From the IMG/VR virus record IMGVR_UViG_3300013901_000006, positions 79,774-143,773 of that record: a stretch of 64,000 nucleotides of DNA. One strand, written 5' to 3'. Positions 119-49,541 of this stretch are shown here, piece by piece. How positions within the stretch are numbered: the first letter of the stretch is position 1; every line of letters begins with the position of its first letter. This stretch comes from a virus. Its lineage: Duplodnaviria > Heunggongvirae > Uroviricota > Caudoviricetes. The position numbers and the translations under genes are program-made. A model generated the notes under the pieces. The model was not told the DNA's origin. It ran no database searches and saw only the letters and a list, made by a program, of their open reading frames with translations.

Positions 119-643
119 TTAAACGTCCAAGAGCACAATGTCATTTGCCGCAATTGTCTTTTTTAAATCAATTACTCGTTGATTTGAACTACCTTTAAAA
201 GCCAATGTTAAATCTTTCTTCTCTTGGATAAAAGGACCATCCACAAGAACGTCCGCAAGTTTGAGAATTGGCTCTAGATAATAATCATCTTTATTCTTTT
301 TGATTCTCTCTTGGAGTTGTTCATAAGTATATCCTGTATAAATCCAAATTTTAATATCTTTGCGGACAACCTTGATATTCTCTAAAAGAGATAATAATTC
401 TTTTAGATTAACTGTCTCTAATGGTTCTCCGCCAAGAACTGAAAAACGTTCAATCCATTCCGGTTGAATCGTTTTGAGAATTTTATTCTTTGCATCTGAA
501 TCATATTCATACCCGCTATTAAAATCCCACAGCTCTTGGTTATGGCAATTTTTGCAATGAAAATGACAACCAGATAAAAAGACGCTAGCTCCAATACCAA
601 CGCCATTGCTAATGTCCATTGACCTTATTTGAAAATATCTCAT
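119..643 (-). CDS. nrdG: Anaerobic ribonucleotide reductase activating protein (radical SAM)
   Basis: 174 aa. N-terminal GCHFHCKNCHN matches the CxxxCxxC radical-SAM cluster. Size and position next to nrdD fit. Confidence 0.8.
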   Translation of the reverse strand: MRYFQIRSMDISNGVGIGASVFLSGCHFHCKNCHNQELWDFNSGYEYDSDAKNKILKTIQPEWIERFSVLGGEPLETVNLKELLSLLENIKVVRKDIKIWIYTGYTYEQLQERIKKNKDDYYLEPILKLADVLVDGPFIQEKKDLTLAFKGSSNQRVIDLKKTIAANDIVLLDV

Positions 644-992
644 TTTTCACCAATCTCATGGTCATCGATATGCTTATATCGAGAAGCAATCTCTTGAGTC
701 TTACCATCGTTCCAGAAGTTAACTCCCACATCTTTAATACCCCTATTTTCATAGTATTTCAAAGGGAATAGACTATACCTTTTATTTATATAATTAAAAA
801 TATAAATAATCTCCATTATAGTCGTTGAACGTCTTTCTTATTATATAAGAAATTTCGCTGCGGATTACCTAATATTTGACGATTTTACCTTACCTTGGTC
901 ATTACCCTTGCCACTATTATATCACTATAATAGCTTGGTTGTCAAATCTCTAAAGGTGTTCCCGCAATTTAGAAGATTTTATGTGAGCCTGT

Positions 993-1976
993 TTAATTCG
1001 TTAACCCACAAGTACGTGCAGCGACGTCCATCTTGTCTGTGTCTGTATTACCGCAGTTAGAGCACTCCCACCACGTATTCCCATCGGTGTCTTTATGTAC
1101 ATCAATAGTCTGTGACTCGCCGCAAACGTGGCAATAGGAAGTCTTTGTATTAATCTCACAGTACATGATGTTATTATAAATACATTCTAGAATTGGATAC
1201 AGAACGGAAATATTCTTAGATACATCTGAACTTTCTACGTAACTTAGGCAACCTCCGACAGAATACTTCTGGAATTCGCCTTCAAGTTCAATCTTGGAGA
1301 ATGGGTCAATGGGTTGAGAACTCGGGATGTGATAAGAATTTTCAAAATACTTCTTGTTTCCAAATAGTTTCTTAAACTGGTCTGGATAACGTTCTTTGGT
1401 CTTAATCGCAAACTTGTAACATAATGATTCTGCTGGGGACGCATAAAGCGAATACCCTACGTTCTCTGCTTGTTTCCATTCTTCACACTTGTTTGTCAAG
1501 AACTTGAGAATTCGTAACATCAGCTCTTGTCCGTTTTTGGTGAAATTATCTTCACCAATGAGAATCTTAACTGCTTCGTTTCCTCCATTGTATCCAAGCG
1601 AGACTGTAGCATATCCATTGTGAACTAGCTTGTCTAGAGTCTCGTCTGGATCTAGTCTAGCTAAGGCTCCATCAACCCATAAGATTGGAGCTACGCCAGC
1701 TTTTGTTTTTGAAAGTCTATCAACTCGAACTTTTAGACCTGTGTGACAAATTTCAGCTCGTTCATCCAGTAATCTGAAAAAGATTTCAAGAAGATGTTCT
1801 TGAGATTTATCCCTGTCATATTTAAGTTCTTCTTGTGCGGCGAAAGCTGTATCTGGAAGATTCAGACTAGAAACGCCGCAATTGAATCGTCCATAATATT
1901 TTGGTTTACCATCTTCATCTAAATATGGAGATAGGAAACTTCTACAACCCCATGAATATTCTGTACAAAACGCCAC
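993..1976 (-). CDS. nrdD: Anaerobic ribonucleoside-triphosphate reductase, C-terminal exon (reading frame stays open upstream to ~2021)
   Basis: GCRSFL and GRFNCGVSSLNLP motifs typical of class III RNR. C-terminal Zn-ribbon cysteines and an RTCGL glycyl-radical-like motif. Frame is open upstream of the annotated GTG start. Confidence 0.75.
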   Translation of the reverse strand: MAFCTEYSWGCRSFLSPYLDEDGKPKYYGRFNCGVSSLNLPDTAFAAQEELKYDRDKSQEHLLEIFFRLLDERAEICHTGLKVRVDRLSKTKAGVAPILWVDGALARLDPDETLDKLVHNGYATVSLGYNGGNEAVKILIGEDNFTKNGQELMLRILKFLTNKCEEWKQAENVGYSLYASPAESLCYKFAIKTKERYPDQFKKLFGNKKYFENSYHIPSSQPIDPFSKIELEGEFQKYSVGGCLSYVESSDVSKNISVLYPILECIYNNIMYCEINTKTSYCHVCGESQTIDVHKDTDGNTWWECSNCGNTDTDKMDVAARTCGLTN

Positions 1977-2364
1977 TTTTGTATACGTTCTCTTATGAAC
2001 TGCTATATGTTTACATATAGATTAGACTATATCATATTCTTATTATTATAAGAATTTTTACATTTCGGTTATCTGTCGCTTATAACCTACGTCACATAAG
2101 GACTAGTCGTTAGGCTTTTATAGATATTGAATACTTTTAATCCCTCTGTTTAAATATCCTTTTGTTTTACTATTATAAACAACACCCTGTTCATTGACCA
2201 AATACCATGACCAATTAGGTATCTTTTTCACATATAATCACCTCCACATTTTCAGGAGGTTTCTTCAACATCTATTCTTAGCACGGTAAGTTATCTATAT
2301 TTTTATAGACTTTCTCCGTTTAGAAAAATTTGCTATCAATATCACTATTGAAAGGCACAGTTAA
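1977..2364 (-). mobile_element. Probable ORF-less group I intron interrupting nrdD (boundaries approximate)
   Basis: ~390 nt without an ORF between two halves of nrdD. The upstream exon ends at an in-frame stop. R-like CAGAGGGAUUA and S-like GACUAGUCC elements lie ~45 nt apart on the minus strand. Hairpins consistent with P9/P9.1. T4 nrdD (sunY) group I intron is a precedent. Confidence 0.5.
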
Positions 2365-3567
2365 TTAGTTTATGCAGGGGAAACAATGACCTTCGCCATT
2401 TGCATCTACCTTGATTTGCTTCATCACTTTCTCGCTGATATAATCAGGAGTTAAGCGTTTAGCAGAACATTCAACCGCTTTCTGAGTTACATGCCAGTAT
2501 TTAGTACCTGGCTTATAATTATCCTCTTCAAGAACATATAGTAGCTTAGGAAAAGCCTGAGTAACATATACACCTTGGCGATTCGGCATACCCTTTTCTC
2601 TCTGTTTTAGAAACTCTTTGATAAGAAGAACAAGTTCTTCTTTATATTCTTCTGTTTCGCCGATATACATAAATAAAGAGCAAAAAGGTGCCTGGCCGTT
2701 TAATGTAAACAGCGTTGAAATTTGATAATTAAAAGTTTGTACCGAATCTGCAATTTCTTTTTTTAAATCTGCAAGTGCAAACTTTTCTTTTAGTTCATCT
2801 GAAATATCTTCATTTTTATACTTGTTTTTGAAGATATTGTAACTATCACGAACGAAAGGAGCTAAATGAGTTAGTGTGATGGATTCTCCACCATAAGAAT
2901 TAGCTGCGACACTAGCCATAATCTGCGTAGTTACAGTCATAGCTGTTAAAAGACGATGCGGCTTATTGATGCGCACATTATTAATAACCGTGCCATTTTG
3001 CAGCATATCTTCTAGATTGATAAGGTCACAGTTATGAAGGGTTGATTGTGCCATATAATCCATATCATGTTGATGGCAGATACCAGCATCATGAGCTTCA
3101 ATGACTTTTTTAGGGAAAATATAATTGCGAGCAATATCTGTGCTTGTAATACCAGCTAGATAATCTCGTTGTACCGTAACAAGTTTAGCATTTTTATTGC
3201 TGTTCTCTGTAGCCCAATAACTTTCTGGGTCATTTTTAATCATATCAAGAATTTCAGCGTCATTATGTTTCTGACGCGCGAGTTGGTGCTCATAACGATA
3301 AATCATATAAGATTTAGCGACATGCGGATAATCTTCCATGAGCAATTCTTCAACCGCATCTTGAATCTCTTCAACAGTCATCTCATCATGGAAATATTCC
3401 GCATCTTGAAAATCTTGTGCGACATTTTTTGCTACGGAATGACAATCACTTTGTTCCCATCCAAGAGAATCAGAAACATCACGTGCCGCACGATAGACCG
3501 CATTTTCAATCTTAGACAAATCAAATTTTACTTTGCTTCCATTTCGTTTTGTAATATATCTAGTCAA
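2365..3567 (-). CDS. nrdD: Anaerobic ribonucleoside-triphosphate reductase, N-terminal exon (ATP-cone + N-terminal catalytic half)
   Basis: 400 aa. N-terminal ATP-cone-like region (VKFDLSKIENAVYRAA). Continuous with the downstream NrdD fragment on the same strand. Confidence 0.75.
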   Translation of the reverse strand: MTRYITKRNGSKVKFDLSKIENAVYRAARDVSDSLGWEQSDCHSVAKNVAQDFQDAEYFHDEMTVEEIQDAVEELLMEDYPHVAKSYMIYRYEHQLARQKHNDAEILDMIKNDPESYWATENSNKNAKLVTVQRDYLAGITSTDIARNYIFPKKVIEAHDAGICHQHDMDYMAQSTLHNCDLINLEDMLQNGTVINNVRINKPHRLLTAMTVTTQIMASVAANSYGGESITLTHLAPFVRDSYNIFKNKYKNEDISDELKEKFALADLKKEIADSVQTFNYQISTLFTLNGQAPFCSLFMYIGETEEYKEELVLLIKEFLKQREKGMPNRQGVYVTQAFPKLLYVLEEDNYKPGTKYWHVTQKAVECSAKRLTPDYISEKVMKQIKVDANGEGHCFPCIN

Positions 3568-4498
3568 TACTTAATCCTTTCTCTTGGTGAATAATCTTTA
3601 ACATATCTTCAATATTTGATTGTAAAGGATAACGGTTGATTGATGTAGAACTCGCGGCAAATTCTTGTTTAACCATATCAACATACATTGTGCTTCTACC
3701 ATCTTCGCCCATATAGAACTGCTTGAATTCTTCTGGTGTCATCAAAGATTGTACATCGATTTGCTGTAACGCAAGATTATCAAATGAAATATTCTGGAAC
3801 CATTTCTCTTCAATCATTCGCGGCAGAGTATTTTGGATATATGCTTGATTGGCTTTAATGTCTTCACCAGCTTGCATTAAATAATTTGTTCCACGTCCAA
3901 AGTTTTTATATCCAAGAATCAAGATTTTTAAATTATGGTGCGCCAAAGACTCTAGTTCATCTTTTGTAACAATTCCATTGATTACATGGACAACAATATT
4001 TGAATTATTCTTGGCCGCATCGATAAATTGTTTACTTGCATGATTTAAAGAAATACCGATACCATAAATTAATTTTTTGTCCGATAGCTCTTGAATAAAA
4101 GGAATATTCTGCATAAAATGCGTTTGATTAACAGTAATGGATGGAATAAGTTTTAATTTTCGGCACTTATATAGGAACTCTTCCAGGTCTGGATGTGTCA
4201 TAATGTCTCCACCACCACAAGCTATTTGAGTGTATGGATGAAGTGAATCGATAAAAGACTTAGAAAGTAAATCACCATGCAACCCATCTTTTGTTGACTT
4301 TTCATGGCAATAAGGACACCCTTTATAGCACCTGTTCGTAATTTTAATATCCATTGAATCTGGAAATTTTGGCCGCAATTCATCCTCTTTTGTATAACGA
4401 ATCATTGTACCATCATTTAAATTAAGCATTACTATATAATTACCATTTTTATATTTTACAATATTAATGTTTTTATCCATCATATCCAAAAAGTCCAA
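3560..4498 (-). CDS. Radical SAM domain protein (function unknown)
   Basis: CYKGCPYC matches CxxxCxxC near the N-terminus. 312 aa. Confidence 0.45.
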   Translation of the reverse strand: MDFLDMMDKNINIVKYKNGNYIVMLNLNDGTMIRYTKEDELRPKFPDSMDIKITNRCYKGCPYCHEKSTKDGLHGDLLSKSFIDSLHPYTQIACGGGDIMTHPDLEEFLYKCRKLKLIPSITVNQTHFMQNIPFIQELSDKKLIYGIGISLNHASKQFIDAAKNNSNIVVHVINGIVTKDELESLAHHNLKILILGYKNFGRGTNYLMQAGEDIKANQAYIQNTLPRMIEEKWFQNISFDNLALQQIDVQSLMTPEEFKQFYMGEDGRSTMYVDMVKQEFAASSTSINRYPLQSNIEDMLKIIHQEKGLSID

Positions 4499-5726: not shown

Positions 5727-8700
5727 TTATTCTTCACCATACCGTCTATTTGTCATTTCAATAGTACCATCAGAATTGATTTGAGTGATTTTATATAATT
5801 GATGCGATTTAGTTTTTTTATAACTCTTAGTAAAAAAACTATTCCCTCTACGAATGCCATTACAGACAACTAATGTACCACGTTGAAACCAGCCATTTTC
5901 CATGCGCTTTTTAGTTCCATTTTGGACTTCGCTGATAATACGATTGTATCTAGCAAAATAATCACGGCTGAACTTCACAGTTATTACATCTTTATCAATA
6001 GTGAGAAGGCTAATTGAAGAATGCATATCATCTTTTGCAATAACAGTCCCTGCAATCCTATCGGTTTTATAAATAGGAATTTCAGTGTCGCCACGCTTGA
6101 ACGTATAATCAACTACAGGATTTTGCGGCAAATCGTTAAAAGATACAATATCATACATATTCATTTTTACATGAAATAATTCATGCTCATGGTAATACAT
6201 GCCTAATGATTCCATTTCCCAATGAGAAATCGAACCAGCCGCATATTTATTCCATGCATCTTGGTCCATTTTACCATTTAGTTTATTAAGTAGTTCTTGT
6301 TGATTCTCAATGATATAAGATTTTGCCGTACTCATTACCTTATCATATTCCTTTTTCCATGCTTTTTTGTTAAGACATAATTGGTTATCTATTGGCTCAA
6401 TCATATCTTCATCAAAAAATTTGATAAAGAATTTATAATATACATCATGTAACGCAAAATATTCTGAATTGAATTTACAATCTTTTTTCAAGCCCTTGTT
6501 AAAATTAAAGACTCGCTTTTGGAAAATTAATTCTTTTGGAATTAAATTATTTTCAATTAAAGCATTAAAATTTTGTAAAGTCAATTTCTTTTTAGGGTTG
6601 GTGGTAGTATGAAGATACTTCCGCATAATATCTTCACGTTTACCAAAAGAATCAAAAGCACCAGATTTAATTAATGATACCATGACTATCTTATTAACTT
6701 TTGTCTTTTCTTCAAAATCTTCTAAAGACTTATAAGGGCGGTTTTCAATAATTTCTTGAATAACTTCTCCACCTACCCCATTTAAGGCTTTCATTCCGTA
6801 AATAATTCTATTATGCTCTTCATCTGGTTCAAAGAAATATTGCGACTTGTTAATGTCCACGAGAGACACTTCACATCCGTGTTTAATAATGTCGCATACA
6901 CCTTTGGCAATCTTACCGTAATTGGAAGTGGAATCCTCTTCTAAACCGCTAATTGCTCGTAAATAGGCTGTATTCCAGTATACAGAAGGGTAATAAGTTG
7001 CAAGAAACGCAGCCTGACATGCAATTAAGGAATACGAATATCCATGAATACGTGAGAAGGAATATGACGCCTGCGGCATAATTACGTATTCCCAAATATA
7101 CTCACCCATATGTTTATTTTTGGCTTGACTGAGTATTTTCTGTTTCAATGATGGGATTTCTTTTATCTTCTTTTTGGAAATAATTTTTCTCGCCTGATTA
7201 GACTCTGCAAGAGTGAAATTGCAAGTATCTTTATCCATTAGGATAAGCATTAAAACTTCTTGCGAAGATGGCGCACCATAGTCCGCACCCATATATTTTC
7301 TGAGTACTCGCTGTTCTTCTTCAGAAAAGCCCCAGTCGTCCATTTCTTTCTGCCACTGCTCAGGATGTTTCTTCAAACGCTCATATCTATCAGCTGGTCG
7401 TTCTTTACCGGCTTCTCCGCTGAGTCGCATAAGTGCGTTACATGCTACCAATTCTTCTACCGTTCTTGGAACCAATTGCCGCACAACATTTCCTCCAACA
7501 GCGGTATTAAGTTGAAATAGGGCTAGAATATCGGTAGAATCAATTGCGTCCCATAGTTTGCTATCATCCAGTGGCAGTTTATCAGGATGAACATATTTGT
7601 CATACGCTTGCCGCAAAGTCAAGTCTTTTTCAAAATATCCGTGCTCTTGGAGCATTTGAATACATTGCCCCATAATTGTCATTTGTTGAGTAACAAGAAA
7701 ATCAAGTTTAGTGTCGCCGCAATGTTCACACCATTCAAGTGAATATTGCGTAGAAACAGAGCCATTCGTTGCTTTCATAAAGCAAGCAGTATCATATGGG
7801 TCTTTACCATAAAAGTTCACACCAGAAGCATGAAGACTTCTATTGGTAACAACGCCTTCAATGCCCATCGCCGTTTCCAAAAGACGCGGATATTTTTTTA
7901 CCTCTGCCAGAAACGCTGCATTAGGTTTGCGGCCTTTCTCTTCATTGCCATATACAACGTCATGTAAAGGCCAGATGAACCCTCTTTCAGATGGCACCAT
8001 AGACGAGATGTATTTGGCAACGTCTACATCTATTCCCATACCGCGACAATTGTGTGAAACAATATTATTTAATAGATAATTATGGCTTTTAGTTTCTAAA
8101 CAATATACGTATCCATTATATTCTTTATGAGAAATATCATTAATTTTTATTTTATAATATTTAATATTATTGTAAATTAATGGCTTTTCTGTTTCCCAAT
8201 CATAATTAATTTTATGTAAATATTTACTTTCATATAATGATTGCGCCGTTTTCCCATAAAACATAAGATTATATGTTACGTGTCTGCTTTTATCAAATTT
8301 TCTTTTTTCGGTAATAACAGAACAATTATACCCATTTTGGGCCGCAATTTGCCATAAATCTTGTATTAATTGATATGAAATAGAAGTACTCTTGCTTTCA
8401 TAACTGTTATTTCGTATCCTGCCATAACCGTCGCCATAAAAATGACCGTATAAACAAGCTTTTTTTACACTTAAAGTACTGTTCATAATAAAATATGGAA
8501 TTTGTTTTGTTAAGCTATTTCCAGGGCAAAATTTATTAAACCATCTGCCCAACGGTGTTGAATTAACTTGAATATCAAGCCCTAAACTTTCTTTTTTACT
8601 ATGCAGTGTAATATTGTTTTTTGGAATATTAAAGCATTTATGTACTAAATAAATAATTCTATTTTTTAACCATGTTTCATTTTGATTAATCGTTAAAGTA

Positions 8701-10835
8701 ATACCATGGCAATTATACCCTATATGTCCTTCTGCAAGATATATTCCTATTAATTCGCCTAATTCAACAGTAATTTCAATTTTTTCTGGAATTAATGCAC
8801 AATGTTTTTTAAATGGATTTTGTTCTGCACTAGAAAAATAAAGAAAATTATCTTCATTCTGTTGAGTATCAAAAATCGGAGTTAGTAAAGAGTCTGTCTT
8901 TTTTATTTGGTCTGCACATAGCCATTGAACAGCATTATTTTTAATTGTTGGCAATTCTACTATTTTATATCCATGCGATTTTTTATACCGTATCATTGAA
9001 GAAAAACTATTTCCAGTATATCTGGTATAGTATTTAGCAGCATCTCTAACAGATAAAAACTCTCCTAGAACATTTCCTAACGGGTCAATAAGTTGGCATC
9101 TATTATAATTACAAATACTACCATAAGATTGCTTTTTTCTATGTGTGTAAACTAATAGCTGATGATTATGGGTAACATCAAAATCAAGACCTATTCCAGA
9201 ACAATTAAAGCTATATAATATACCGTTATATGTCCTTTTTGTAGGAGAAACAACTGGTGTTAGACCATAAACATCATACACATAATCTAACGAAGTAATA
9301 TTTTGTATTGCTTTTAGCCCATTTTTTGTATTAATTAAAGTATTTGGCGCTAAACACGCAATTTGGATTGCACTTTTGCTAGAAGCGGTACCAAATGTAC
9401 ATACTTGAACGCACCCTAATGGCCCTCTTTCTTCCCTAATTTTAGAAAAAATGAGCTCTCTTTTTGTAGGGTCAAGGTCGATGTCAATATCGCCAATTTC
9501 TACACGCTCTTTGTTCATATATCGGAACCATGGAGCATTAGTTCTAATAGGGTCTGTCTGGGTAATTCCAAGTAGATAATGATTAAGACCAGACCCGGCG
9601 CTTCCACGTCCCGCGCCTACGCACGAACCGCACTCCCAAAAGAGATCGATATAGTGCTGTAGAAAGATAGGATATGAGAACATACACGTATCTAATTTTT
9701 CACCGATGACCTTCTTTGTATCAGCCTCTTCTTCTAGACGTGAAAGATATTTTTCATTATTTAAGTGCTTCTTTTCCAGTTCATTTTGACAATAATTAAC
9801 CCAATATCTTTCCTGTGGGTTATCTGAATGTGCTAAATAATCAAGTGTAGGATACTTTTTTACATCATAAAAATGATGATTAGACTCTTCTTTTGGATAA
9901 TTAAAAACTTCTACTTGCGGGATTTGCTGCTTTTTAAACAAAGAATACTCTTCAATCTTATCATAGATTTCATTCGTATTCTTTTCTAACTCATAATAAT
10001 CTAAGTCAGTACTTTCGAGATTCTTAATCACTTGTTCTGTTGTTTGAAGAAAAGCATAGTGATAAAAAGAATCTACTTCACGCTCAATATTTTTAGAATT
10101 AAGAAACGCTTTATGAATTGCCCTGTCTTCTTCTTTAAGATAGTGTGCATCTGTAGTTATAATAATCTTGAGATTGAAATACTTTGCCAATGATTTCATG
10201 CGGCGATTGACGATTAATTGCTCTTCTGACTGCGCTGGCTGTACTTCAAGATAAAAATCATTAGGGAATAAGTTTTTACAAAAATTAATGAATTCTGCAA
10301 TCTCTTTGGTAATCTGTTTTGCTAATTCTATATCATGTTCCTGTTCTGCGGTATGCAAACGGAGAATTTGTTTATCTATCTCCGACCCCAAACATGCGGA
10401 ACTGGCAATCAAATGCCCCTTTCCATATTTGAGAATTATTTGTTGCAAATTAGTCTTAAGTGTTGGTACACGTTCGATACCCCGATCAAAGTACGAATGG
10501 AGCCACGCTGTAGAAGAAATTTCCCGCAAGGTTTTATGACCAATTTTATCTTTTGCAATGAGAATAAAATGGTAATATTGTTGGCCTTTATCTAGCGAAT
10601 CGACAAGATAAATTTCATCTCCACGTCCGATTTTAAAATTAGGATTAACCTTTTTAATGTCCTCTTGGATAATATCCAACTCAGGATGGCAGCTAAGACT
10701 CTCATGGTCAGTGATGCAAATGCCAGTAAGTCCAATCTCACATGCACGCTCAACGAGTGCTCTTGGAGATTGTAAAGCGTCTAGTCCGCGTAGATTCGAG
10801 TAGAAAGTGTGCGCGTGGCATTCAAACCTACCCAT
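5727..10835 (-). CDS. dnaE: DNA polymerase III alpha-type replicative polymerase (DnaE/PolC family) containing an intein
   Basis: N-terminal PHP domain (HAHTFYS, GICITDH). Polymerase core motif GRGSAGSGLNHYLLGIT. 1702 aa total, about 1266 aa without the intein. Confidence 0.85.
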   Translation of the reverse strand: MGRFECHAHTFYSNLRGLDALQSPRALVERACEIGLTGICITDHESLSCHPELDIIQEDIKKVNPNFKIGRGDEIYLVDSLDKGQQYYHFILIAKDKIGHKTLREISSTAWLHSYFDRGIERVPTLKTNLQQIILKYGKGHLIASSACLGSEIDKQILRLHTAEQEHDIELAKQITKEIAEFINFCKNLFPNDFYLEVQPAQSEEQLIVNRRMKSLAKYFNLKIIITTDAHYLKEEDRAIHKAFLNSKNIEREVDSFYHYAFLQTTEQVIKNLESTDLDYYELEKNTNEIYDKIEEYSLFKKQQIPQVEVFNYPKEESNHHFYDVKKYPTLDYLAHSDNPQERYWVNYCQNELEKKHLNNEKYLSRLEEEADTKKVIGEKLDTCMFSYPIFLQHYIDLFWECGSCVGAGRGSAGSGLNHYLLGITQTDPIRTNAPWFRYMNKERVEIGDIDIDLDPTKRELIFSKIREERGPLGCVQVCTFGTASSKSAIQIACLAPNTLINTKNGLKAIQNITSLDYVYDVYGLTPVVSPTKRTYNGILYSFNCSGIGLDFDVTHNHQLLVYTHRKKQSYGSICNYNRCQLIDPLGNVLGEFLSVRDAAKYYTRYTGNSFSSMIRYKKSHGYKIVELPTIKNNAVQWLCADQIKKTDSLLTPIFDTQQNEDNFLYFSSAEQNPFKKHCALIPEKIEITVELGELIGIYLAEGHIGYNCHGITLTINQNETWLKNRIIYLVHKCFNIPKNNITLHSKKESLGLDIQVNSTPLGRWFNKFCPGNSLTKQIPYFIMNSTLSVKKACLYGHFYGDGYGRIRNNSYESKSTSISYQLIQDLWQIAAQNGYNCSVITEKRKFDKSRHVTYNLMFYGKTAQSLYESKYLHKINYDWETEKPLIYNNIKYYKIKINDISHKEYNGYVYCLETKSHNYLLNNIVSHNCRGMGIDVDVAKYISSMVPSERGFIWPLHDVVYGNEEKGRKPNAAFLAEVKKYPRLLETAMGIEGVVTNRSLHASGVNFYGKDPYDTACFMKATNGSVSTQYSLEWCEHCGDTKLDFLVTQQMTIMGQCIQMLQEHGYFEKDLTLRQAYDKYVHPDKLPLDDSKLWDAIDSTDILALFQLNTAVGGNVVRQLVPRTVEELVACNALMRLSGEAGKERPADRYERLKKHPEQWQKEMDDWGFSEEEQRVLRKYMGADYGAPSSQEVLMLILMDKDTCNFTLAESNQARKIISKKKIKEIPSLKQKILSQAKNKHMGEYIWEYVIMPQASYSFSRIHGYSYSLIACQAAFLATYYPSVYWNTAYLRAISGLEEDSTSNYGKIAKGVCDIIKHGCEVSLVDINKSQYFFEPDEEHNRIIYGMKALNGVGGEVIQEIIENRPYKSLEDFEEKTKVNKIVMVSLIKSGAFDSFGKREDIMRKYLHTTTNPKKKLTLQNFNALIENNLIPKELIFQKRVFNFNKGLKKDCKFNSEYFALHDVYYKFFIKFFDEDMIEPIDNQLCLNKKAWKKEYDKVMSTAKSYIIENQQELLNKLNGKMDQDAWNKYAAGSISHWEMESLGMYYHEHELFHVKMNMYDIVSFNDLPQNPVVDYTFKRGDTEIPIYKTDRIAGTVIAKDDMHSSISLLTIDKDVITVKFSRDYFARYNRIISEVQNGTKKRMENGWFQRGTLVVCNGIRRGNSFFTKSYKKTKSHQLYKITQINSDGTIEMTNRRYGEE
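8049..9356 (-). mobile_element. Intein with double-motif LAGLIDADG homing endonuclease inside dnaE (aa 494-929)
   Basis: Starts with Cys (CLAPNTL...). Ends ...VSHN followed by extein Cys (CRGMGIDVD). Internal LAGLIDADG blocks IGIYLAEGH and LYGHFYGDGYG. Insertion lies within the conserved FGT..KSAIxxx|RGxG region. Confidence 0.7.
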
Positions 10836-41236: not shown

Positions 41237-41311
41237 GGGCCATTAGCTCAGTTGGATTAGAGCCTGAAACTTCTATTTTCAAAGTCGCGCGTTCGAGTCG
41301 CGCATGGCTCA
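41237..41311 (+). tRNA. tRNA-Arg (anticodon TCT)
   Basis: Hand-folded cloverleaf. Acceptor GGGCCAT/ATGGCTC. D arm GCTC-AGTTGGATTA-GAGC. Anticodon stem TGAAA/TTTCA with loop CTTCTAT. T arm GCGCG-TTCGAGT-CGCGC. Confidence 0.75.
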
Positions 41312-41625
41312 CTTAGTAGACTGGCAATCAGTTAGTCTACGTTATTTAAAACAGCATTTTGAAAGGATTTATTGTGAAAATTCGTGATTGGGAAGACTTC
41401 GATGAAGAGGATAACTTTGAAAAATTTTCCCATAAGACAAAACTAATTCGCCAGCGCAAAGATGATACTTACAAAAGTAAGCGTCGTGAGAAGCGTGAGC
41501 GTCAAGAATTTGAAGAAAATGCTGCGAAGGGCGGGGAGTAATTCCTGCCTTTTTTTATTATAAAAAATAGTTGCCATTTGCCGCATAATCATATATAATA
41601 TATTTACCAAAAGAAAGAGGTAAGT

Positions 41626-42561
41626 ATGAATGAAGTAGATATGCTCCGCAATGATTCTCTTGTGCGGGAAAAGGATTTGGGAAACGGAATCTCGTCTTTC
41701 AATTTTTCCAATAAGTGCTTTTGGGATAAGAAGTGGACTACGGAGTCAATCAAGGCTCGCGGATTATTCTGTGATGTTAAAAATAACAATGTTGTTGCAC
41801 GTTCTTATAATAAGTTTTTCAATATTGGAGAGCGTCCTGAGACTGAAATGCGGAATCTTCGTACTACTTTTGCATATCCTGTGCAGGCATATGTGAAGTA
41901 TAATGGTTTTTTGGCAATCGTCTCAGCAGATAAGGATAATCCCGATAAGTTGTTCATCGCATCCAAGAGCACTAATGAAGGCCAGTTTGCGGGATACATT
42001 AAAAACATTATTAACTCTATGTTGAGCGAAGATGCGCAAAAGGATTTTGCAAACACCTTGCATAATCTTAATATCTCTGCTGTGTTTGAGTGTATTGACC
42101 AAGCGCATGACACGCATATTGTAGAATATTTCAGTCCGCATTTAGTTATGCTTGATTGTATTTATAATTCCTTTGAATATAAGCACATGTCATATGAGAA
42201 TATGAGAGAATTTGCATGTAAGTTTGGTTTTTTGTTTAAGGTTCGTTTTTCCATTTTAACAGATTGGGAAGATTTTACAAGTTTTATTGATTGGCATAAG
42301 GATGATAATGGGATTGAAGGATTTGTGTTTGAAGATGCTAATGGGTTCATGGTAAAGTATAAAACTTTATGGTATCGTTACTGGAAGCAGGTGCGTGGCG
42401 TTTTGCAGCAGGTCTGGAACGGACGTGATATTGATTCAATCAAGAATATCAATAACAAGATTAAGCCAGAGCACAAGCAGCCGCTTCTTGATTTCGTAGC
42501 TTCATGCCGCAATCGTGATGCGTGTCCATCAGTAATTGAATTCCGCAACTCTTTATCTTAA
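41626..42561 (+). CDS. RNA ligase of tRNA-ligase (Trl1/KxNG) type
   Basis: Motif I VKYNGF (K-x-N-G). Motif IV IEGFVFE. Motif V VKYKTLWY. 311 aa. Confidence 0.5.
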   Translation: MNEVDMLRNDSLVREKDLGNGISSFNFSNKCFWDKKWTTESIKARGLFCDVKNNNVVARSYNKFFNIGERPETEMRNLRTTFAYPVQAYVKYNGFLAIVSADKDNPDKLFIASKSTNEGQFAGYIKNIINSMLSEDAQKDFANTLHNLNISAVFECIDQAHDTHIVEYFSPHLVMLDCIYNSFEYKHMSYENMREFACKFGFLFKVRFSILTDWEDFTSFIDWHKDDNGIEGFVFEDANGFMVKYKTLWYRYWKQVRGVLQQVWNGRDIDSIKNINNKIKPEHKQPLLDFVASCRNRDACPSVIEFRNSLS

Positions 42562-43108
42562 TTTTAGTTTGACTCTTGGTATAATATATTATATAATATA
42601 ATTGTTCCAAGAGAGGAAAGGAAGTTATATGACTGCTACTTACACTACCGCCGTTCTTCGTCTCGCCAGCTATTACGTGGACAATAAGGATGATATTACC
42701 GGAGATTATATTGATGGGGCAGTTATGACTATCAGTAATGTCTATGGGGTGCGTGACGAGCGCATTCGCCGAGACATGTATAAGATGATTGACATTTTGA
42801 TTGATGGAGAGTAAAATGCTTTCATGGAATTGGGATATTAACAATCCTATTCGGCTTGGTATGGAGGACGAGCATATGCAGGAAAGCGTTTACAAGTGTA
42901 TCCAAGAGTTCGAAAATGAATATATGGGGCATCCATCTTGTGAAGAGTTTGAAGATACCTTGGAGCGCAACGGTATTGACCCGTCTGACATGCCTAATTG
43001 CTATTGGAACGATTTAGCTCAATATCTTTAATTCTATGGGAGATTGTCTATTGACAGTCTCCCTATTTTTTTATATAATATAAAAAGTATATATTGAAAG
43101 GATGATGT

Positions 43109-43921
43109 ATGATTAAACTTGCAATTCCCTTTCAATTGAATGGAGAGTTAAATGATGATGTAAAAGAATTCAATATTCTTTTTTATAAATCTCGAAATTC
43201 AATTGAAGATTTGATTGAATTCGTTCAAGAGTATGAGGATACTCGCATTAATCTGGAATTCCCAGAAGGAATTCATATGCCGACAGTCAAATCAATTAAT
43301 AAAGTCTCTGATAATATTTATATTAAGGTTGCTCCTGCGGATATTCTTAAAGTTGTAGAGCTTAAAGAAAATAATTTTAAATTCTTTTTTAATCAAGATA
43401 TGCCGGTATCAACATACACAGCACTTGATGCCTTTTTCCGCATGGGTGTATCAGACGTATACATTGCAGATGACTTGTGCTATAATTTAACAGAAGTGCG
43501 GCAAATGTGTGAAAGTCATAACGTACAAATGCGGCTAGTCCTTAATAAGATTCCATGCACTACTTTTGACCGTGGAGTTAATCCCAAGAGTCCAATCTAT
43601 ATGCCTAAAGACTTTGAGCTTTTGGATGGATATTTTGATGTATTTGAATTTGAGTGCGGCCTACCGTATGACTGGGCTAAGTTCGATGTTCTATATCGAG
43701 CATGGTTTATCAATCATTATTGGCATGGTCAAATGAGCGAAATAAATGAAGATGTAGACCAGAATTTTCATTGTGACGCAATCCATCCTGATTTTACCCG
43801 CAATAAACTAAATTGTGAACGTAGATGCTGCAAAAGGGTGTCAAATAATTGCCGCAAATGTGAAGATTTTCTTGAGCTTGGTGAAGTATTGAAAGCTAAG
43901 AGAATTCGATTTACAAATTAA
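43109..43921 (+). CDS. Hypothetical protein with Cys-rich C-terminus
   Basis: 270 aa ORF with CERRCCKRVSNNCRKCEDF, behind a terminator-promoter cassette at 43040-43090. Confidence 0.35.
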   Translation: MIKLAIPFQLNGELNDDVKEFNILFYKSRNSIEDLIEFVQEYEDTRINLEFPEGIHMPTVKSINKVSDNIYIKVAPADILKVVELKENNFKFFFNQDMPVSTYTALDAFFRMGVSDVYIADDLCYNLTEVRQMCESHNVQMRLVLNKIPCTTFDRGVNPKSPIYMPKDFELLDGYFDVFEFECGLPYDWAKFDVLYRAWFINHYWHGQMSEINEDVDQNFHCDAIHPDFTRNKLNCERRCCKRVSNNCRKCEDFLELGEVLKAKRIRFTN

Positions 43922-44016
43922 TTGGGCAAATGATTATAAACTTTTGCCCATATTTTTTATAAATATATAAGCAATCGTCTAACTGTCGTATAGGATTTAA
44001 GGAGAATTTTATTCAA

Positions 44017-44796
44017 ATGACAATCATTAAAAACAGGGCAACGAAAGCATTGGCCTATGGTGTATCTATTTTAGCCTTGGCCGGAGTGACAAATGCTTAT
44101 TGCGCTTCAAACGCAAGCGCTATGTCCAACGATGAAATCTTAGCTGCGGCTACTCGTGAAATCAAAGTTGAAACCATGTTCAAATATAAAGAAGATGGAT
44201 ATGATAACGCGCAAAGTTGGCTGGTAGATAAGATTAATATGCAAACCCAGCAGCAAGACCAAGTAACAAGAATCATTCAAGATTATGGAGATTATCTAGA
44301 TTTAAATGAGATTTCTCAAATTCAACAGATTATGGAAAAGCAATCTGTGGCAACTAGTATCTCTGAATTAAAGCAGTATAAAGCTGAACTTGATAAATGG
44401 TCACAGTATGGTGCCGATAAAAAACAAAAAGCACTCCAAGAGAAGAAAGAAGCGGAAGAGCGCGCGGCACAAGAAGCATTAGCGGCAGAGCAGGCAGCAC
44501 AACAGGCCGCAATCGCTCAAAATGTGCAAACTATTTCATATAGTAATACCAATGCAAATACTTCTTACTCTTGGTCTGGTGGCAGCGCGAAAGATTTTAT
44601 CGTAAGCAAAGAAAGTGGCGGTAATTATAATGCTACCAACGGTAGGTTTTTTGGCGCGTATCAGTTAGATATATCCTACCTTAATGGTGATTTATCGCAA
44701 GAAAATCAAGACCGTGTTGCCGAACAATATGTAAACAATAGATATGGCAGTTGGGAAAACGCTGCCGCACATTGGCAGTCTAACGGTTGGTATTAA
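44017..44796 (+). CDS. Secreted protein with C-terminal Rpf/transglycosylase-like domain
   Basis: Signal/TM segment ALAYGVSILALAGVTNAYCAS. Coiled-coil middle. C-terminal SKESGGNYNATNGRFFGAYQLDISY resembles the ESGGN...G..G.YQ lytic-transglycosylase-like fold. Confidence 0.45.
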   Translation: MTIIKNRATKALAYGVSILALAGVTNAYCASNASAMSNDEILAAATREIKVETMFKYKEDGYDNAQSWLVDKINMQTQQQDQVTRIIQDYGDYLDLNEISQIQQIMEKQSVATSISELKQYKAELDKWSQYGADKKQKALQEKKEAEERAAQEALAAEQAAQQAAIAQNVQTISYSNTNANTSYSWSGGSAKDFIVSKESGGNYNATNGRFFGAYQLDISYLNGDLSQENQDRVAEQYVNNRYGSWENAAAHWQSNGWY

Positions 44797-46023
44797 GAAA
44801 GTAGTTGACAATATTTGAAATGTTTGGTAATATATTATTGAAAGTTAAGAAGTGGGCAATTCCAGTAATTGCCGCATTAATCGTTGTGGTTGGGGGCCTA
44901 ACAGTATGGGTTAACACTACCTTCCAAGGTCAACTTTGGTTCGACAAAATGACAAATCAAAGAACTCCACCTCCTGAGAATCACTGTATCAGGGTGTATT
45001 CCGCAGGAGAGCTCGTTGGAGACTATGATGGACATTATTCTGTAGAACAATTTGATGACCACATTGTTCTTATCAATCATGATAAACATGATGATAAAAC
45101 TGAAATCTACGGTGAAACCGCAGTGATTGTAGACGAAGATTAAAAGGAGAAAATTAATGGTTGAATCTTATGGTATGAATTTTAATGCTGCACTAACGCA
45201 GGATAAAGATGGTAAGGTGTCTCTTGGTGTACACGTGACCGATTCGGACGGCCTGGATATTGACAAGAATGAATCTGGCAGCGATATTCCAAAAGTCATT
45301 GAAAATCTTTGCAGTGGTCTGATTAAAGACCTAACAGTTGTATCTAATGGCCGCAAAGCCAAAAAGGAGAAGGAAGATGCGGAGAAGCGTCGTGCGGCCA
45401 AAGCTGAGAAGCAGAAGAAGATTGCAGACCTTAAAGCACAGGCAGAAGCTCTACAAAAAGAGATTGCCGCACTGGAATCTGAAAAAACGTCCTCCACGCC
45501 CAAGACTACAGTGAGTGCTCTAGATTCACTTTCCAAGGACTTTGAATCTCTGCTGGACGATTCAACTATGAAAATTTTCCGCAAGATGCTGTTCTAAAAT
45601 TTATCTTGCAAACCCATATATAAAGTTATATAATATACTTAAAGAAAAGGAAGGAGATACAGGATGTTCGTAGGTGACAAGTTTTATAACATTGATACGG
45701 AACGCGACTTTGACGCTTGCTTGAAAGAGAACGGTTTCGACCCTGCGGAAATTAAAAACTATGCTATCTCCTTCCACGTTTCTAATCGCGCATGTTGCGT
45801 AGAAGGCCTACTTGGTGACGATTGGGCGGAAGTATCTCATGCGATTCAACAGGAGTGTGATGACTTGCGGAATGAGGTGGATAACCTTGAATCTCGTTCT
45901 CGCAAAGGCAATACTCGTGCTGACATTGCTAAACGTCTTAGCACTATTCTTGAGAATATTTATGACCTTGCTTTATCGAATCAAATTTATGACCCCGATG
46001 AACTTTAAGTAATATTTTTTTCT

Positions 46024-46052
46024 TGACAAAAAGGAAAATTAACTATATAATA
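46024..46052 (+). promoter_or_regulatory. Consensus TTGACA-17-TATAAT promoter feeding a ~100-nt transcript ending at the 46120-46165 terminator
   Basis: TTGACA aaaaggaaaattaacta TATAAT. No ORF before the downstream hairpin and T-run. Confidence 0.55.
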
Positions 46053-46119
46053 TATTTGAAATCTTTGGACAAAGATGTATAATTTTGTTGTACAACTTTT
46101 TATATTATATAGTGGTGCT

Positions 46120-46165
46120 AGAGCCTACAGTGTTCCAGAAATATTGTAGGCTCATTTTTCTTTTG
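46120..46165 (+). terminator. Intrinsic terminator (GAGCCTACA...TGTAGGCTC + TTTTTCTTTT)
   Basis: 9-bp perfect stem followed by a T-run. Confidence 0.6.
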
Positions 46166-46170
46166 GCAAA

Positions 46171-46240
46171 GCCAGTTTAGTATAACAGTAATACATCGCT
46201 CTTGTAAAGCGAAGCAGACAGGGCAGCACTGTCAACTGGC
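46171..46240 (+). tRNA. tRNA-Thr (anticodon TGT)-like gene with non-canonical D- and T-loops
   Basis: Perfect acceptor GCCAGTT/AACTGGC + TCCA. D stem GTAT/ATAC. Anticodon stem TCGCT/AGCGA with loop CTTGTAA. T stem GACAG/CTGTC, but the T loop is GGCAGCA and the D loop lacks GG. Confidence 0.45.
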
Positions 46241-46481
46241 TCCAATATTTTAGTATTCTATGAGGATAATATAAAAGGAGATTCGACCACTCCAAGCAAT
46301 GCACTTGTATTATTCTCATAGAGTGCTAACCTTAGACACTCTCCAAGTGATAGTAGAGCGGAATTTGACCCCGTCTGTGCTATCCCAAGTTATAAGCGAT
46401 TCGGGCAGTCGCTATACAAATTTGCCCACTTTAGATTATTAGATAGGCTACATAGGGAGTAGCTACCTCATGGAAAAGTGA

Positions 46482-46537
46482 ATATCCACCACCTGCCTAT
46501 CTATTGTATTTAGTGGATAGGAAAGTGTGGATATATG
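46482..46537 (+). promoter_or_regulatory. Stable hairpin sequestering the RBS and start codon of the HNH endonuclease gene
   Basis: ATATCCAC...CCTATC-loop-GATAGG-AAAGT-GTGGATAT. The 3' arm ends at the ATG (46535). SD-like AGGAAAG lies inside the 3' arm. Confidence 0.5.
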
Positions 46538-47260
46538 CTTAAATGTATTATTTGTGAAAAAGATTTTGTTATTAGACCAAATGGTAAAATGGGCGGGGCA
46601 AATCGTCAAATTTGTTATAATTGCTTGCCTGAAGATATTAGTTCAAAACAAGAAAGACGAAAAGCTACGAATTTTCTTATTAGTCAAAAGCTTCAAAAAG
46701 AAAAAACAAGTCGTGGCTGCGATATTTGTGGTTACAATAGTTGCGGAGCAGCATTAGAGTGGCATCATTATAATAGCGATAAAGATTTTAATCCAAGTGC
46801 TATTCCAGTATGCAATTGGGAAACATTGAAGAAATATCGTAAAGAAACTCAAAAATGTCAATTATTATGTGCAAATTGCCATAGAGAAATACATTATAAA
46901 AAATATTGGGGAAATTTTATTATGCCAATTGATAGTGGCCAAAGTGAAAATTTCAGAAAAGAAGTTTGTGATTATTACAAAGAAAACCTAAACATAAATA
47001 AAACTAGCGTTTATTTCCATAAAAATCGCGAAACAATTAAAAATATTCTGCTGTATTGTGGAGTTAAGATAACTAAAGAAGACAATCATAAATCTGTCAG
47101 TATGATAAATATTAAAACAAATGAAATTATTAAAACATTTTACAGTTTAAATGAAGCTAGTGATTTTTTAAATAAAGGTAAAGGTGGCATTACCCATATA
47201 TCTGATGCTTGTTCCGGGAAAAGAAAGACTGCTTACGGGTACAAATGGCGTTATGAATAA
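46535..47260 (+). CDS. HNH homing endonuclease
   Basis: Zn-ribbon CIICEK...CYNC. HNH core EWHHYNSDKDFN...CANCHREIHYKKY. Confidence 0.7.
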   Translation: MLKCIICEKDFVIRPNGKMGGANRQICYNCLPEDISSKQERRKATNFLISQKLQKEKTSRGCDICGYNSCGAALEWHHYNSDKDFNPSAIPVCNWETLKKYRKETQKCQLLCANCHREIHYKKYWGNFIMPIDSGQSENFRKEVCDYYKENLNINKTSVYFHKNRETIKNILLYCGVKITKEDNHKSVSMINIKTNEIIKTFYSLNEASDFLNKGKGGITHISDACSGKRKTAYGYKWRYE

Positions 47261-47343
47261 TATTTTTCATTTTTACTTTTAAAAATTATTTGACAAATTA
47301 TCAAATAATTTGATATAATATAGTTAACAAAAGGAGAAACACT

Positions 47344-47500
47344 TCTTTTGAACATAGGGTTCCTAAACCAAAAGAATTAGGTGCGGCTTAAGGTTTCAGA
47401 CTACAGATAAAAGAAACTTAGTGATTAAATAAATGATGCGAAAGAACGTCTGAAAAATCACGATTAAAATATGGTTTGCGGTTATCCTAAAACCGCACCT
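47344..47500 (+). ncRNA. Candidate structured small RNA (~160 nt) closed by a 10-bp long-range helix and U-tract
   Basis: UUAGGUGCGG (47374-83) pairs with CCGCACCUAA (47488-97). Internal helices UUUCAGAC/GUCUGAAA and GUGAU/AUCAC. Followed by AAAUUUUUC. Promoter at about 47293-47321. Confidence 0.4.
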
Positions 47501-47857
47501 AAAATTTTTCTTGACTTCTAGTTGAGAATAATGTACAATATATTTAGAAGAAAAGGGGGGAAAAGGATAGTCAACAGTACCATCAACAAACCAGTGACCC
47601 TGCGGCGAATATTAATGAGCCAATACCCATAAGATGTAATATCGAGTACGCTGTTAGGTTGATTAAATTTTTCTTCCAAATAAGTTTAAACGCCAAGAGA
47701 AAGAGGTAAAATGGCACAGTCTATCGAGTCTATGGAGCAGCGTTATCAGATGCTTATTAACCGAAAGGGTAAGAATTCAGAAAATGTAGGCATTATGCGC
47801 AAACTTCGCCGCAAGATTAACAAGGCTAAGTCAGGTATCATTCTTTCTTAATTTTAT

Positions 47858-47980
47858 ATGCGTGATAGGGATTCAGTTACTTCATATCAATAGCAGAGAT
47901 ATAGGCTGTCGGTTCGAATCCGACCATCTACGGATGTAGCTCAACAGGTAGAGCGATGTCATTTTATAGTCTGAATCCAA
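47858..47980 (+). ncRNA. Y-RNA-like tRNA-like RNA, copy A (closing helix + T-arm + acceptor-like hairpin + D-arm)
   Basis: 5' box AUGCGUGAUAGGGAUUCAGUUACUUC. GGAUUCAG (47869-76) pairs with CUGAAUCC (47971-78). Enclosed: GUCGG-UUCGAAU-CCGAC, CUACGGAUGUAG, and GCUC-AACAGGUA-GAGC. Confidence 0.5.
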
Positions 47981-48204
47981 GATTTCCGCATATTTTTTCT
48001 TGACTTTTGGTTATATATATTATATAATATATTTAGTTCAAAGGAGATAACATGAAATACTGCATTTGCCGTGAAAAAACTACGCATTGCCTGTCTATTC
48101 GAGTTGATACTGACTGCTCGCCTGTACGCTTTGATGTACTTTCCATTCATGACACTTTCGAAGAGGCAGATGCGGCACTTCGTTTTTATCTTGATTAATC
48201 TATT

Positions 48205-48290
48205 TTATAGATAGATTAATTTGAACATTCCGCAGCCAGAGCCAATCTGGACCGCCGCATACTTGAAAGGAAGCGGGTTTGAATGTTTTA
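48205..48290 (+). ncRNA. Candidate small structured RNA between a 48-aa ORF and tRNA-Lys
   Basis: Terminal pairing GAACAUUC/GAAUGUUU encloses hairpins CCAGA-gccaat-UCUGG and CCGC-N14-GCGG. Speculative. Confidence 0.25.
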
Positions 48291-48291
48291 T

Positions 48292-48364: not shown

Positions 48365-48379
48365 CCTATTTTATTTCGC

Positions 48380-48452: not shown

Positions 48453-48465
48453 CAAAATAAAATAT

Positions 48466-48494: not shown

Positions 48495-48499
48495 ATAAA

Positions 48500-49434: not shown

Positions 49435-49442
49435 CCAGAACT

Positions 49443-49525: not shown

Positions 49526-49541
49526 CCAATTGTATTTTATA

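Follow-up and report, generated by a model that had tools for sequence, protein, structure and literature searches.

Group I introns that interrupt phage ribonucleotide reductase (RNR) genes, with several in one gene and located at catalytic sites, are well documented. More than 100 of them have been curated in RNR genes (PMC2795772), and nrdD is the RNR gene most often split among sequenced phages (PMC3653736). Two group I introns, of which one has an HNH endonuclease, have been described close to functionally important residues in the nrdE gene of phage Twort (Landthaler et al., 2002, as summarized in PMC3653736), the T4 nrdB intron carries an I-TevIII gene with a large deletion that is intact in phage RB3 (PMC2988022), and in the gut Jug phages nrdD is found in up to four pieces with spliced reads in metatranscriptomes (PMC12880540). 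Here we analyze the nrdD gene in a stretch of 64,000 nucleotides (nt) from a virus of the Caudoviricetes (IMG/VR record IMGVR_UViG_3300013901_000006, positions 79,774 to 143,773; hereafter the window). We are confident that this gene is split by two group I introns and spliced to a 744-amino-acid NrdD, and that the first of these introns is a passenger devoid of endonuclease. The evidence consists of the boundaries of the insertions, their fold and covariation, their homology to other introns, their presence/absence polymorphism among relatives and the purifying selection on the exons.

A three-exon model of nrdD

All positions are window coordinates; nrdD is located on the minus strand and the numbering of its exons and introns consequently descends in the 5' to 3' direction. 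Mechanical calling of open reading frames (ORFs) on this strand gives an ORF of 400 amino acids (2365..3567) and one of 327 amino acids (993..1976, in a frame open back to 2021). Two sequences of NrdD crystal structures, one of them T4 NrdD, are matched by both ORFs with E values of 1e-43 to 1e-51, the upstream ORF aligning to T4 NrdD residues 19-278 and the downstream ORF to residues 288-580. These matches bear out an initial annotation, made from the DNA letters, that had recognized two co-oriented halves of nrdD. It had placed the C-terminal half at 993 to about 2021; the NrdD homology of this half holds, but the gene continues beyond it through a second intron (1003..732) and a third exon (731..640).

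We therefore model nrdD as three predicted exons on the minus strand: 3567-2372, 1950-1004 and 731-640. Exon 1 (2372..3567), assigned by its NrdD homology, starts with the TTG at 3567, 7 nt downstream of a Shine-Dalgarno-like AAAGGA, and contains codons 1-398 and the first 2 nt of Met399. Exon 2 (1004..1950) runs from the third nucleotide of Met399, via Cys401, to Gly714 and the first nucleotide of Tyr715. Exon 3 (640..731) provides the last 2 nt of Tyr715 and continues to the stop codon at 642-640 (..Y-VGVNFWNDGKTQEIASRYKHIDDHEIGEK*), its product being colinear with RTCGYIGSNFWNKGRTEEIAERYVHLDDHE.. of the intact homolog L005. The spliced reading is a 744-amino-acid protein, colinear with intact NrdDs and without insertion or deletion at either junction. 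The hallmarks of class III RNR are all found in this product (M399-G-C401-RSFL, RTCG714-Y and CHVCG...CSNCG) and NrdG is encoded next to it: the gene of this radical-SAM activase of NrdD (nrdG, 119..643, minus strand) starts with an ATG overlapping the nrdD stop codon (ATGA), and its protein matches Pfam Fer4_12 (3.8e-42) and Radical_SAM (29.3 bits, slightly below the cut-off of 29.5). Judging from these motifs, the host gene encodes the large subunit of the class III (anaerobic) RNR, NrdD. Naive gene calling fragments this gene into truncated ORFs of 400 and 327 amino acids plus a 58-codon ORF overlapping exon 3, and the corrected three-exon model replaces these fragments by a single 744-amino-acid enzyme.

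Comparison with the relative L011 reveals 197 codons that differ synonymously only and 38 with an amino-acid change, and the figures are similar for other close relatives. This pattern points to purifying selection on the exons and to a functional, albeit interrupted, gene; under such selection, the interruptions would have to be removed.

Boundaries and insertion site of intron 1

Intron 1 (1951..2371, minus strand; 421 nt) has its predicted 5' splice site after U2372 and its terminal G (omegaG) at 1951. It interrupts the Met399 codon in phase 2 (...FPC-M-GCRSFL), two codons before the catalytic cysteine, the equivalent of Cys290 in T4 NrdD. In T4 NrdD, Cys290 is the catalytic residue and Gly580 the glycyl-radical residue. 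The frames of the window read ...GEGHCFPC|IN* upstream and ...EYSW|GCRSFLSPY downstream of the junction, and the upstream frame ends two codons past it (..CAU|A AAC UAA), as anticipated by the initial remark that the upstream exon meets a stop at once. Exon 1 ends with ...CCC UGC AU (U2372) and exon 2 starts with G GGU UGU AGA (G1950); joining the two restores the AUG codon, giving ...CCCUGCAU joined to GGGUUGUAGA at the predicted spliced junction. Intact relatives read straight through the gap, with ...NAVYACMGCRSFL in Enterocloster phage CB473P1 and ...NGNGNCY(P/T)CMGCRSFLTPY... in two fecal-virome contigs. Intron sequence makes up the final 3 codons of the upstream ORF and, in the listed downstream ORF, the initial 9 codons (24 counted from 2021).

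Relatives were obtained by scanning viral contigs with the exon 2-3 protein, resulting in 18 loci. In every relative, similarity to the window is lost exactly at 2372. Two intron-less alleles (L023 and L024) read TGY ATG GGC TGT at this site and, being uninterrupted, fix the insertion point of intron 1 to the nucleotide. One locus, L022, is 99.75% identical to the window over 3.2 kb and is evidently the same phage. The IMG/VR record UViG 3300014039_000031 has 99.75% identity over this locus. Homologous insertions at the identical nucleotide are found in L011 (789 nt), L025 (265 nt) and L028 (773 nt). Three more, in L031, L033 and L039 (768-769 nt), came from a motif scan; the nrdD proteins of these three are only 46-48% identical to that of the window. 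This same-site set comprises homologs of intron 1 in six other phages, with nrdD protein identities of 46-100%. U2372 pairs with G2358 in the P1 helix, the last base of the intron is G1951, and P1 is invariant in all seven homologs.

Alignment of the exon halves to an uninterrupted NrdD, as suggested in the initial annotation, located the exact junction, colinear and without insertion or deletion. The intervening segment, initially delimited as 1977-2364, is corrected to 2371..1951 (421 nt) on the basis of the intact homologs and the intron-less alleles. The end of the Rfam model (final G at 2003) was rejected as the 3' splice site since it would add 17 residues that have no counterpart in homologs.

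A split gene does not have to be spliced in order to work. In Aeromonas phage Aeh1, nrdA is split by the mobE endonuclease gene and its pieces work without splicing, as cited in PMC3653736, so that unspliced and working split RNR genes are documented in that source; similarly, the nrdD fragments of the window could be translated separately and assemble into an active enzyme, and a GTG at 1976 is indeed found in the downstream frame. This GTG is however not preceded by a Shine-Dalgarno sequence, and exons 2 and 3 likewise lack a preceding start signal, an argument against the pieces being translated separately. Exon 3 alone would amount to a 30-amino-acid peptide without a start codon, one break lies within the catalytic Cys loop and the other one residue past the radical Gly, and the residues flanking the breaks (..CIN* and ..VAFCTEYSW) have no counterpart in intact NrdDs. 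Furthermore, covariation keeps the ribozyme fold (see below), for which no selection is expected if the RNA is never spliced. We consider translation in pieces to be very improbable, and retain splicing of the three exons.

Fold and covariation of intron 1

We aligned the seven introns inserted after TGC AU (site 1a; a family of 265-789 nt) together with 8 nt of the 5' exon and 6 nt of the 3' exon, after removal of the variable P6 insert by hand. Pairs were counted by laying the named group I structure, P1-P9.2 with pseudoknotted P7, on this alignment. Standard pairs occupy 97.5% of the cells in the seven introns; sliding the 3' partners by 1-3 columns lowers this share to 29-43%. Changes on both sides are observed in half of the pairs (36 of 72), distributed over P2, P3, P4, P5, P6, P7.1, P7.2, P8, P9 and P9.2, and none of 500 column shuffles matched the observed pairing, the compensatory-pair counts or the covariation score. 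P7 (GACUA 2108-2104 with UAGUC 2029-2025) is invariant and so is P9.1 wherever it is present. The slid-partner control and the number of independent compensatory changes make a fold produced by chance very unlikely.

On the minus strand of the window, the helices preceding P7 are P1 (2375-2371/2359-2355), P2 (2354-2346/2341-2333), P3 (2328-2323/2061-2056), P4 (2319-2314/2290-2283), P5 (2309-2305/2298-2294) and P6 (2282-2281/2115-2114). P7 (2108-2104/2029-2025) is followed by P7.1 (2103-2101/2093-2091), P7.2 (2087-2082/2072-2067), P8 (2055-2051/2040-2036), P9 (2020-2014/2009-2003), P9.1 (2000-1997/1990-1987) and P9.2 (1985-1977/1970-1962). P7.1/P7.2 between P7 and the 3' strand of P3, plus the P9.1/P9.2 extensions, are a trait of subgroup IA, to which the introns of T4 td and Twort belong, and we classify intron 1 as an IA-like group I intron.

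This structure revises the core elements proposed initially. Two quoted strings, CAGAGGGAUUA (2148-2138) and ACGACUAGUCC (2110-2100), are present on the coding strand as claimed but both had been misassigned. The first, taken for an R element, codes for ..NRGIK.. near the end of an endonuclease remnant (see below) and is absent from the minimal 265-nt homolog L025; the second, taken for an S element, is the 5' strand of P7 together with P7.1. The true 3' strand of P7 lies in GAUAUAGUC (2033-2025) and the real S-type element is AUGAUAUAGUC (2035-2025). Likewise, the GAUUA that had been paired with UAGUC to form P7 is located in endonuclease coding sequence absent from L025, and the real P7 is GACUA/UAGUC.

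The suggested scan with the Rfam model Intron_gpI (RF00028), for which the gathering threshold of 50 bits is a detection criterion and not a defining property of the RNA, returned nothing at threshold for intron 1, but a permissive local scan gave partial matches to P7-P9 (2003-2109, 27.6 bits; E value of 5e-5 locally and 0.005 for the whole window) and to P4-P6 (2240-2319, 16.5 bits). The score remains below threshold because the 158-nt P6 insert breaks the match and the extra helices P7.1/P7.2 and P9.1/P9.2 are not covered by the model. Unconstrained folding of the single sequence (z = -3.3) recovered several of the hairpins and did not recover the pseudoknotted core, so that it carries little weight on its own.

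A number of observations weigh against our interpretation. Splicing is inferred from the sequence, and the segment flagged initially has no Rfam match at threshold, leaving intron 1 under the gathering score. The covariation analysis uses seven sequences only, two of them near-identical, with the P6 insert cut by hand and a structure drawn partly from the same sequences. U.U mismatches occur in P2 and P3 of the window's intron 1. Its P9.2 has A.C at the position of the A-U pair seen in its closest relatives, L022 and L011, and its P9 is capped by a UAAA loop, compared to GNRA loops in relatives (GAAA in L011). Given these mismatches and this loop, self-splicing of intron 1 could be reduced relative to its relatives or could depend on a helper protein. 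Finally, the P10 pairing with the 3' exon appears weak by eye in both introns.

An endonuclease remnant in the P6 loop

The P6a extension of intron 1 (2120..2275, minus strand) is closed by a 12-bp stem (2275-2264 with 2131-2120), and relatives close the same P6 insert with stems of different sequence. Within it, a CCUCC...GGAGG hairpin (2259-2241) holds a former Shine-Dalgarno sequence and is followed by ATG TGA. A 37-codon GTG ORF (2118..2231, minus strand) encodes MKKIPNWSWYLVNEQGVVYNSKTK-GYLNRGIKSIQYL, which we identify as the remnant of an HNH homing endonuclease by its match to the intact ORF of L011. In this relative, the same intron contains an intact ORF of 160 amino acids, beginning with MWKKIPNWSWYLVNEQGVVYNSKTK and ending with GYLNRGIKSIQYL, and both ends match the window remnant. 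The L011 ORF has Pfam matches to HNH_3 (4.8e-7) and NUMOD4 (0.0024), and intact ORFs with these two domains are found in the intron 1 homologs of both L011 and L028. A Pfam search with the 37-amino-acid remnant alone returned nothing meaningful, the HNH domain being missing, and the identity of the remnant is consequently known from the intact homolog only.

The difference between the two alleles is an in-frame deletion of 366 nt with its ends in two AAAACAAAA repeats, leaving a junction at the AAAACAAAA of 2168-2160; the original ATG of the endonuclease is now directly followed by a stop codon (ATG TGA). The deletion does not reach beyond the P6 loop, and neither the closing stem of P6a nor the core is affected. 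Intron 1 of the window has lost its homing endonuclease and retained the ribozyme core. An intact homing endonuclease, as expected of a mobile intron, is encoded by neither intron of the window, with 37 codons remaining in intron 1 and no ORF in intron 2. The initial description of the segment as ORF-less is therefore imprecise in that the 37-codon ORF (2231..2118) is present, and right in that this remnant of the HNH deletion is not a working ORF. More generally, the proposal that nrdD contains a group I intron without a working ORF is supported by the junctions, the intron-less alleles, the P1 helix and omegaG, the covariation and the homology.

Loss of the endonuclease gene, together with the few helix mismatches and the non-GNRA L9 loop of intron 1, could also be read as a sign of decay, with nrdD being a pseudogene in which intron 1 has lost splicing as well as its endonuclease. 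Against decay, all three exons are intact and in frame, with the catalytic Cys, the Gly-radical motif and the CxxC...CxxC zinc site kept, and substitutions relative to relatives are overwhelmingly synonymous. The deletion is confined to the P6 loop without harm to the P6a stem and the core, and the downstream nrdG activase is intact. A decaying gene is in our estimation very improbable, and we favor a functional nrdD with an intron 1 that still splices.

A second intron at the glycyl-radical site

Intron 2 (732..1003, minus strand; 272 nt, no ORF), which the initial annotation had missed, has its predicted 5' splice site after U1004 and its omegaG at 732. It interrupts, in phase 1, the codon of Tyr715, the residue following the glycyl-radical Gly (RTCG|Y; this Gly is equivalent to T4 Gly580). 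Here Rfam Intron_gpI gives a full-length model match at 750-1078 with 56.3 bits, above the threshold of 50. The 3' end of the model match (750) lies 18 nt before the actual end of the intron (732); the final G at 750 was rejected as 3' splice site, as it gives a stop codon.

The downstream ORF ends with ...AARTCG-LTN*, cutting the motif RTCGY, and intact relatives go on with RTCGYIGSNFWNKGRTEEIAERYVHLDDHE. The end of exon 2, GGG U (U1004), and the start of exon 3, AU GUG GGA GUU AAC UUC UGG (from A731), together encode RTCG-Y-VGVNFWNDGKTQEIASRYKHIDDHEIGEK*, and at the nucleotide level the spliced junction would be ...UUGUGGGU joined to AUGUGGGAGU. Twelve close relatives (L011-L021 and L027; exons with 84-92% DNA identity) have position 1004 joined directly to 731, with exactly 272 nt absent.

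In the P1 helix, UGUGGGU (1010-1004) pairs with GCUCACA (988-982), U1004 being opposite the first G of GCUCACA. P7 is formed by GACUA (about 821-817) with UAGUC (775-771), and a terminal hairpin at 754-743 is capped by GAAA (all on the minus strand). Homologs at the same site were found in Enterocloster phage CB457P1 (L045; 293 nt) and in the fecal contig MT835556 (L003; 275 nt). The consensus fold of these three delimited introns includes 18 compensatory pairs and recovers the terminal hairpin along with P1, P3, P4, P5 and P6, and reading the alignment by eye, GACUA/UAGUC in P7 covaries with GAACA/UGUUC in L003. With a match above the Rfam threshold, the core fold and precise boundaries, intron 2 is by these predictions a group I intron. 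A permissive Rfam scan of the 64-kb window at E <= 0.05 detected no other group I introns.

The intron of CB457P1 is located at the same point after RTCG, has 72% nucleotide identity to intron 2 over 87% of the intron, and is followed by a confirmed exon 3. In Enterococcus phage VRE9_1, 74% identity to the 5' 64% of intron 2 starts right after RVCG, and this phage probably carries a homolog at the same site, with its 3' junction not located. The VRE9_1 intron seemingly carries a homing endonuclease gene, unlike intron 2. The GenBank annotations of nrdD in CB473P1 (L001 5098-5127, OP172755.1) and VRE9_1 (L046 1-1491, PP680567.1) end at RTCG/RVCG plus a few spurious codons. That of CB457P1 (L045 1-1202, OP172753.1) ends in the same way, and here an unannotated 293-nt group I intron and the missing last exon are confirmed. 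Annotated nrdD in the Enterocloster phages, and apparently in VRE9_1 too, thus omits the Tyr after the radical Gly and the remaining C-terminus. CB473P1 has a different insertion at the glycyl-radical site and, about 2 kb downstream of its nrdD, a match to the Rfam skipping-rope sRNA (RF02924; 65.5 bits, L001 7037-7116, minus strand).

Both insertions could in principle be elements of another kind, namely inteins, group II introns or segments skipped by translational bypass as in T4 gene 60. Some phages have inteins in nrdD (PMC3653736), and an intein-like insert is found in the polymerase gene of the window. Both insertions, however, contain stops in all frames relative to the exons and therefore cannot be inteins. 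At 421 and 272 nt they are far too short for group II introns, no family of which was matched by Rfam. The gap bypassed in T4 gene 60 is about 50 nt, which the two insertions far exceed, and their group I fold and core sequences are specific. We consequently give practically no weight to these alternatives and treat both insertions as group I introns.

Proposed pathway of splicing and endonuclease loss

Catalysis and splicing in vivo, which we infer from the structures above, would follow the established group I pathway, each intron folding within the pre-mRNA. The internal guide sequence is predicted to form P1 by pairing with the end of the upstream exon, the cleavage site being marked by a G.U wobble (UGUGC with GCAU|A in intron 1; GCUCACA with UGUGGGU in intron 2). 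A free guanosine, bound in P7, would attack after the exon-terminal U; the terminal G of the intron would then enter the guanosine site and the freed exon end attack after this G, ligating the exons. The product mRNA would encode the 744-amino-acid NrdD.

Intron 1 would formerly have been mobile by homing, using the HNH endonuclease encoded in its P6 loop. Deletion of 366 nt in frame between the two repeats presumably removed the catalytic domain of the endonuclease, so that intron 1 of the window would now be a non-mobile passenger that is still obliged to splice.

Alternative introns in sibling phages

Other siblings carry a different intron 4 nt downstream of site 1a, after AUG GGU and between the Gly and the catalytic Cys codons (site 1b). 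Its length is 190-196 nt, or 713 nt where P6 contains an HNH ORF (L012 4094-4283, also in L013 and L017; L026 4076-4271; L014-L021 and L027 3288-4000). Its P1 (AUGGGU with GCCCAU) is clear and its core compact, and at 26.7 bits it scores below the Rfam threshold. The 190-nt element would be unusually small, among the smallest natural group I introns. In L014 (3288-4000), the HNH ORF of the 713-nt intron contains an in-frame TAG (..IELCQ*VDNVGYKQ..) before the HNH motif, which may reflect decay of the endonuclease gene or else recoding of the stop.

Among the 18 related loci, none has both site-1 introns and two have neither, and siblings with about 85-90% exon nucleotide identity carry one or the other. 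We tentatively suggest, as a possibility that we regard as less likely than not, that sites 1a and 1b are two alternative homing sites 4 nt apart in the Cys loop of NrdD, with natural exclusion of one intron by the other at a catalytic codon, since either insertion would abolish the target of the other intron. If true, the window would represent the burnt-out end of such an exclusion cycle, with its endonuclease deleted. The range of occupancy among siblings (none; site 1a with or without endonuclease gene; site 1b; with or without intron 2) provides material for the study of intron gain, loss and competition.

The intron 1 family also occurs in a distant nrdD lineage (26-28% identity; L029, L036 and L041, from IMG/VR), about 170 nt downstream of a AAGCCTAACGACTAGTC motif. 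Its insertion point there immediately precedes ..NTLQSRSGNQLPF.. and is within a few codons of the site of the T4 nrdD intron; this family has therefore colonized at least two different nrdD sites. In L034, L035, L037, L038, L042 (two copies) and L044, members are found in other genes of other viral contigs, with an identical P6'/J6-7/P7 motif and covarying P7.2, P8, P9 and P9.2. In two fecal-virome nrdD genes (L002 620-2689 and L003 3001-5043), the N-terminal half is interrupted by an extra insertion, about 880-890 nt long and recognized from tblastn matches in two pieces, and nrdD of L003 has at least two interruptions.

Other features of the window

An ORF of 312 amino acids (3560-4498, minus strand) is located directly upstream of nrdD and overlaps its start. 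With a weak radical-SAM match (24.8 bits; cut-off 29.5) and a CxxxCxxC-like motif (CYKGCPYC), it may encode a second radical-SAM protein beside nrdD-nrdG. Further upstream, a DNA polymerase III alpha-like ORF of 1702 amino acids (5727-10835, minus strand), in which the NTPase domain is matched in two stretches, contains an intein-like insert with LAGLIDADG-like ..LAEGH.. (apparent start CLAPNT.., apparent end ..VSHNC) and a Pfam Intein_splicing score of 33.2 bits, slightly below the cut-off of 35.8. Nine tRNA genes were found by Rfam on the plus strand (41237-51962), eight of them clustered at 46.2-52.0 kb; the one at 51796-51884 was detected by the permissive scan only, yet has 48.7 bits against a cut-off of 29.

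Comparison with known systems

Group I introns resembling the 3' domain of intron 1 were found in 461 phage records. Examples include split genes with HNH ORFs in crAss-like phage cr50_1, the endolysin gene in phage CF5 (Staphylococcus), nrdE in phage AM1 (Lactococcus) and thyA in phage PJN02 (Bacillus). Lactococcus 949-like phages and PJN02 were considered as carriers of the same insertion site and rejected, the matches being in nrdE and thyA. A megablast search of the whole locus against isolated phages found no close relative, only short intron matches. In a limited literature we found no paper on these particular nrdD sites, and we do not claim that they are unreported.

Jug jumbo phages and crAss-like gut phages also have nrdD cut by several short group I introns, and the crAss-like introns share the 3' domain of intron 1. 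These phages belong to other lineages with other hosts (Bacteroides/Phocaeicola). Twort nrdE resembles the window nrdD in having two group I introns in an RNR large-subunit gene beside important conserved residues, and introns of Twort-like Staphylococcus phages have a 3' domain in common with intron 1; nrdE is however class Ib and the window nrdD class III, and the sites are not homologous.

The T4 nrdD (sunY) intron is likewise found in a class III RNR gene followed by nrdG and has IA-type extra helices. The analogy to T4 nrdD drawn in the initial annotation is thus valid for the gene and the kind of element and fails for the site and the endonuclease. T4 has a single intron, at codon 180 (..AYE-Y|EVNTLF..), whereas the window phage has two, at codons equivalent to T4 Met288 and Tyr581. 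The T4 intron is 1033 nt long and encodes the GIY-YIG enzyme I-TevII, compared to one deleted HNH gene and one intron without ORF here.

In the T4 nrdB intron the ORF is also located in the P6 loop. T4 and RB3 resemble the window and L011 in that an HNH gene in an RNR group I intron is deleted in one phage and whole in a relative; the gene, the phage group and the host are different and there is no detectable close sequence relationship. The window nrdD reveals no new mechanism and belongs to a well-known kind of element. It provides a clean example of two known rules, that selfish introns settle at the most conserved and catalytically essential RNR codons and that they then lose their endonuclease genes.

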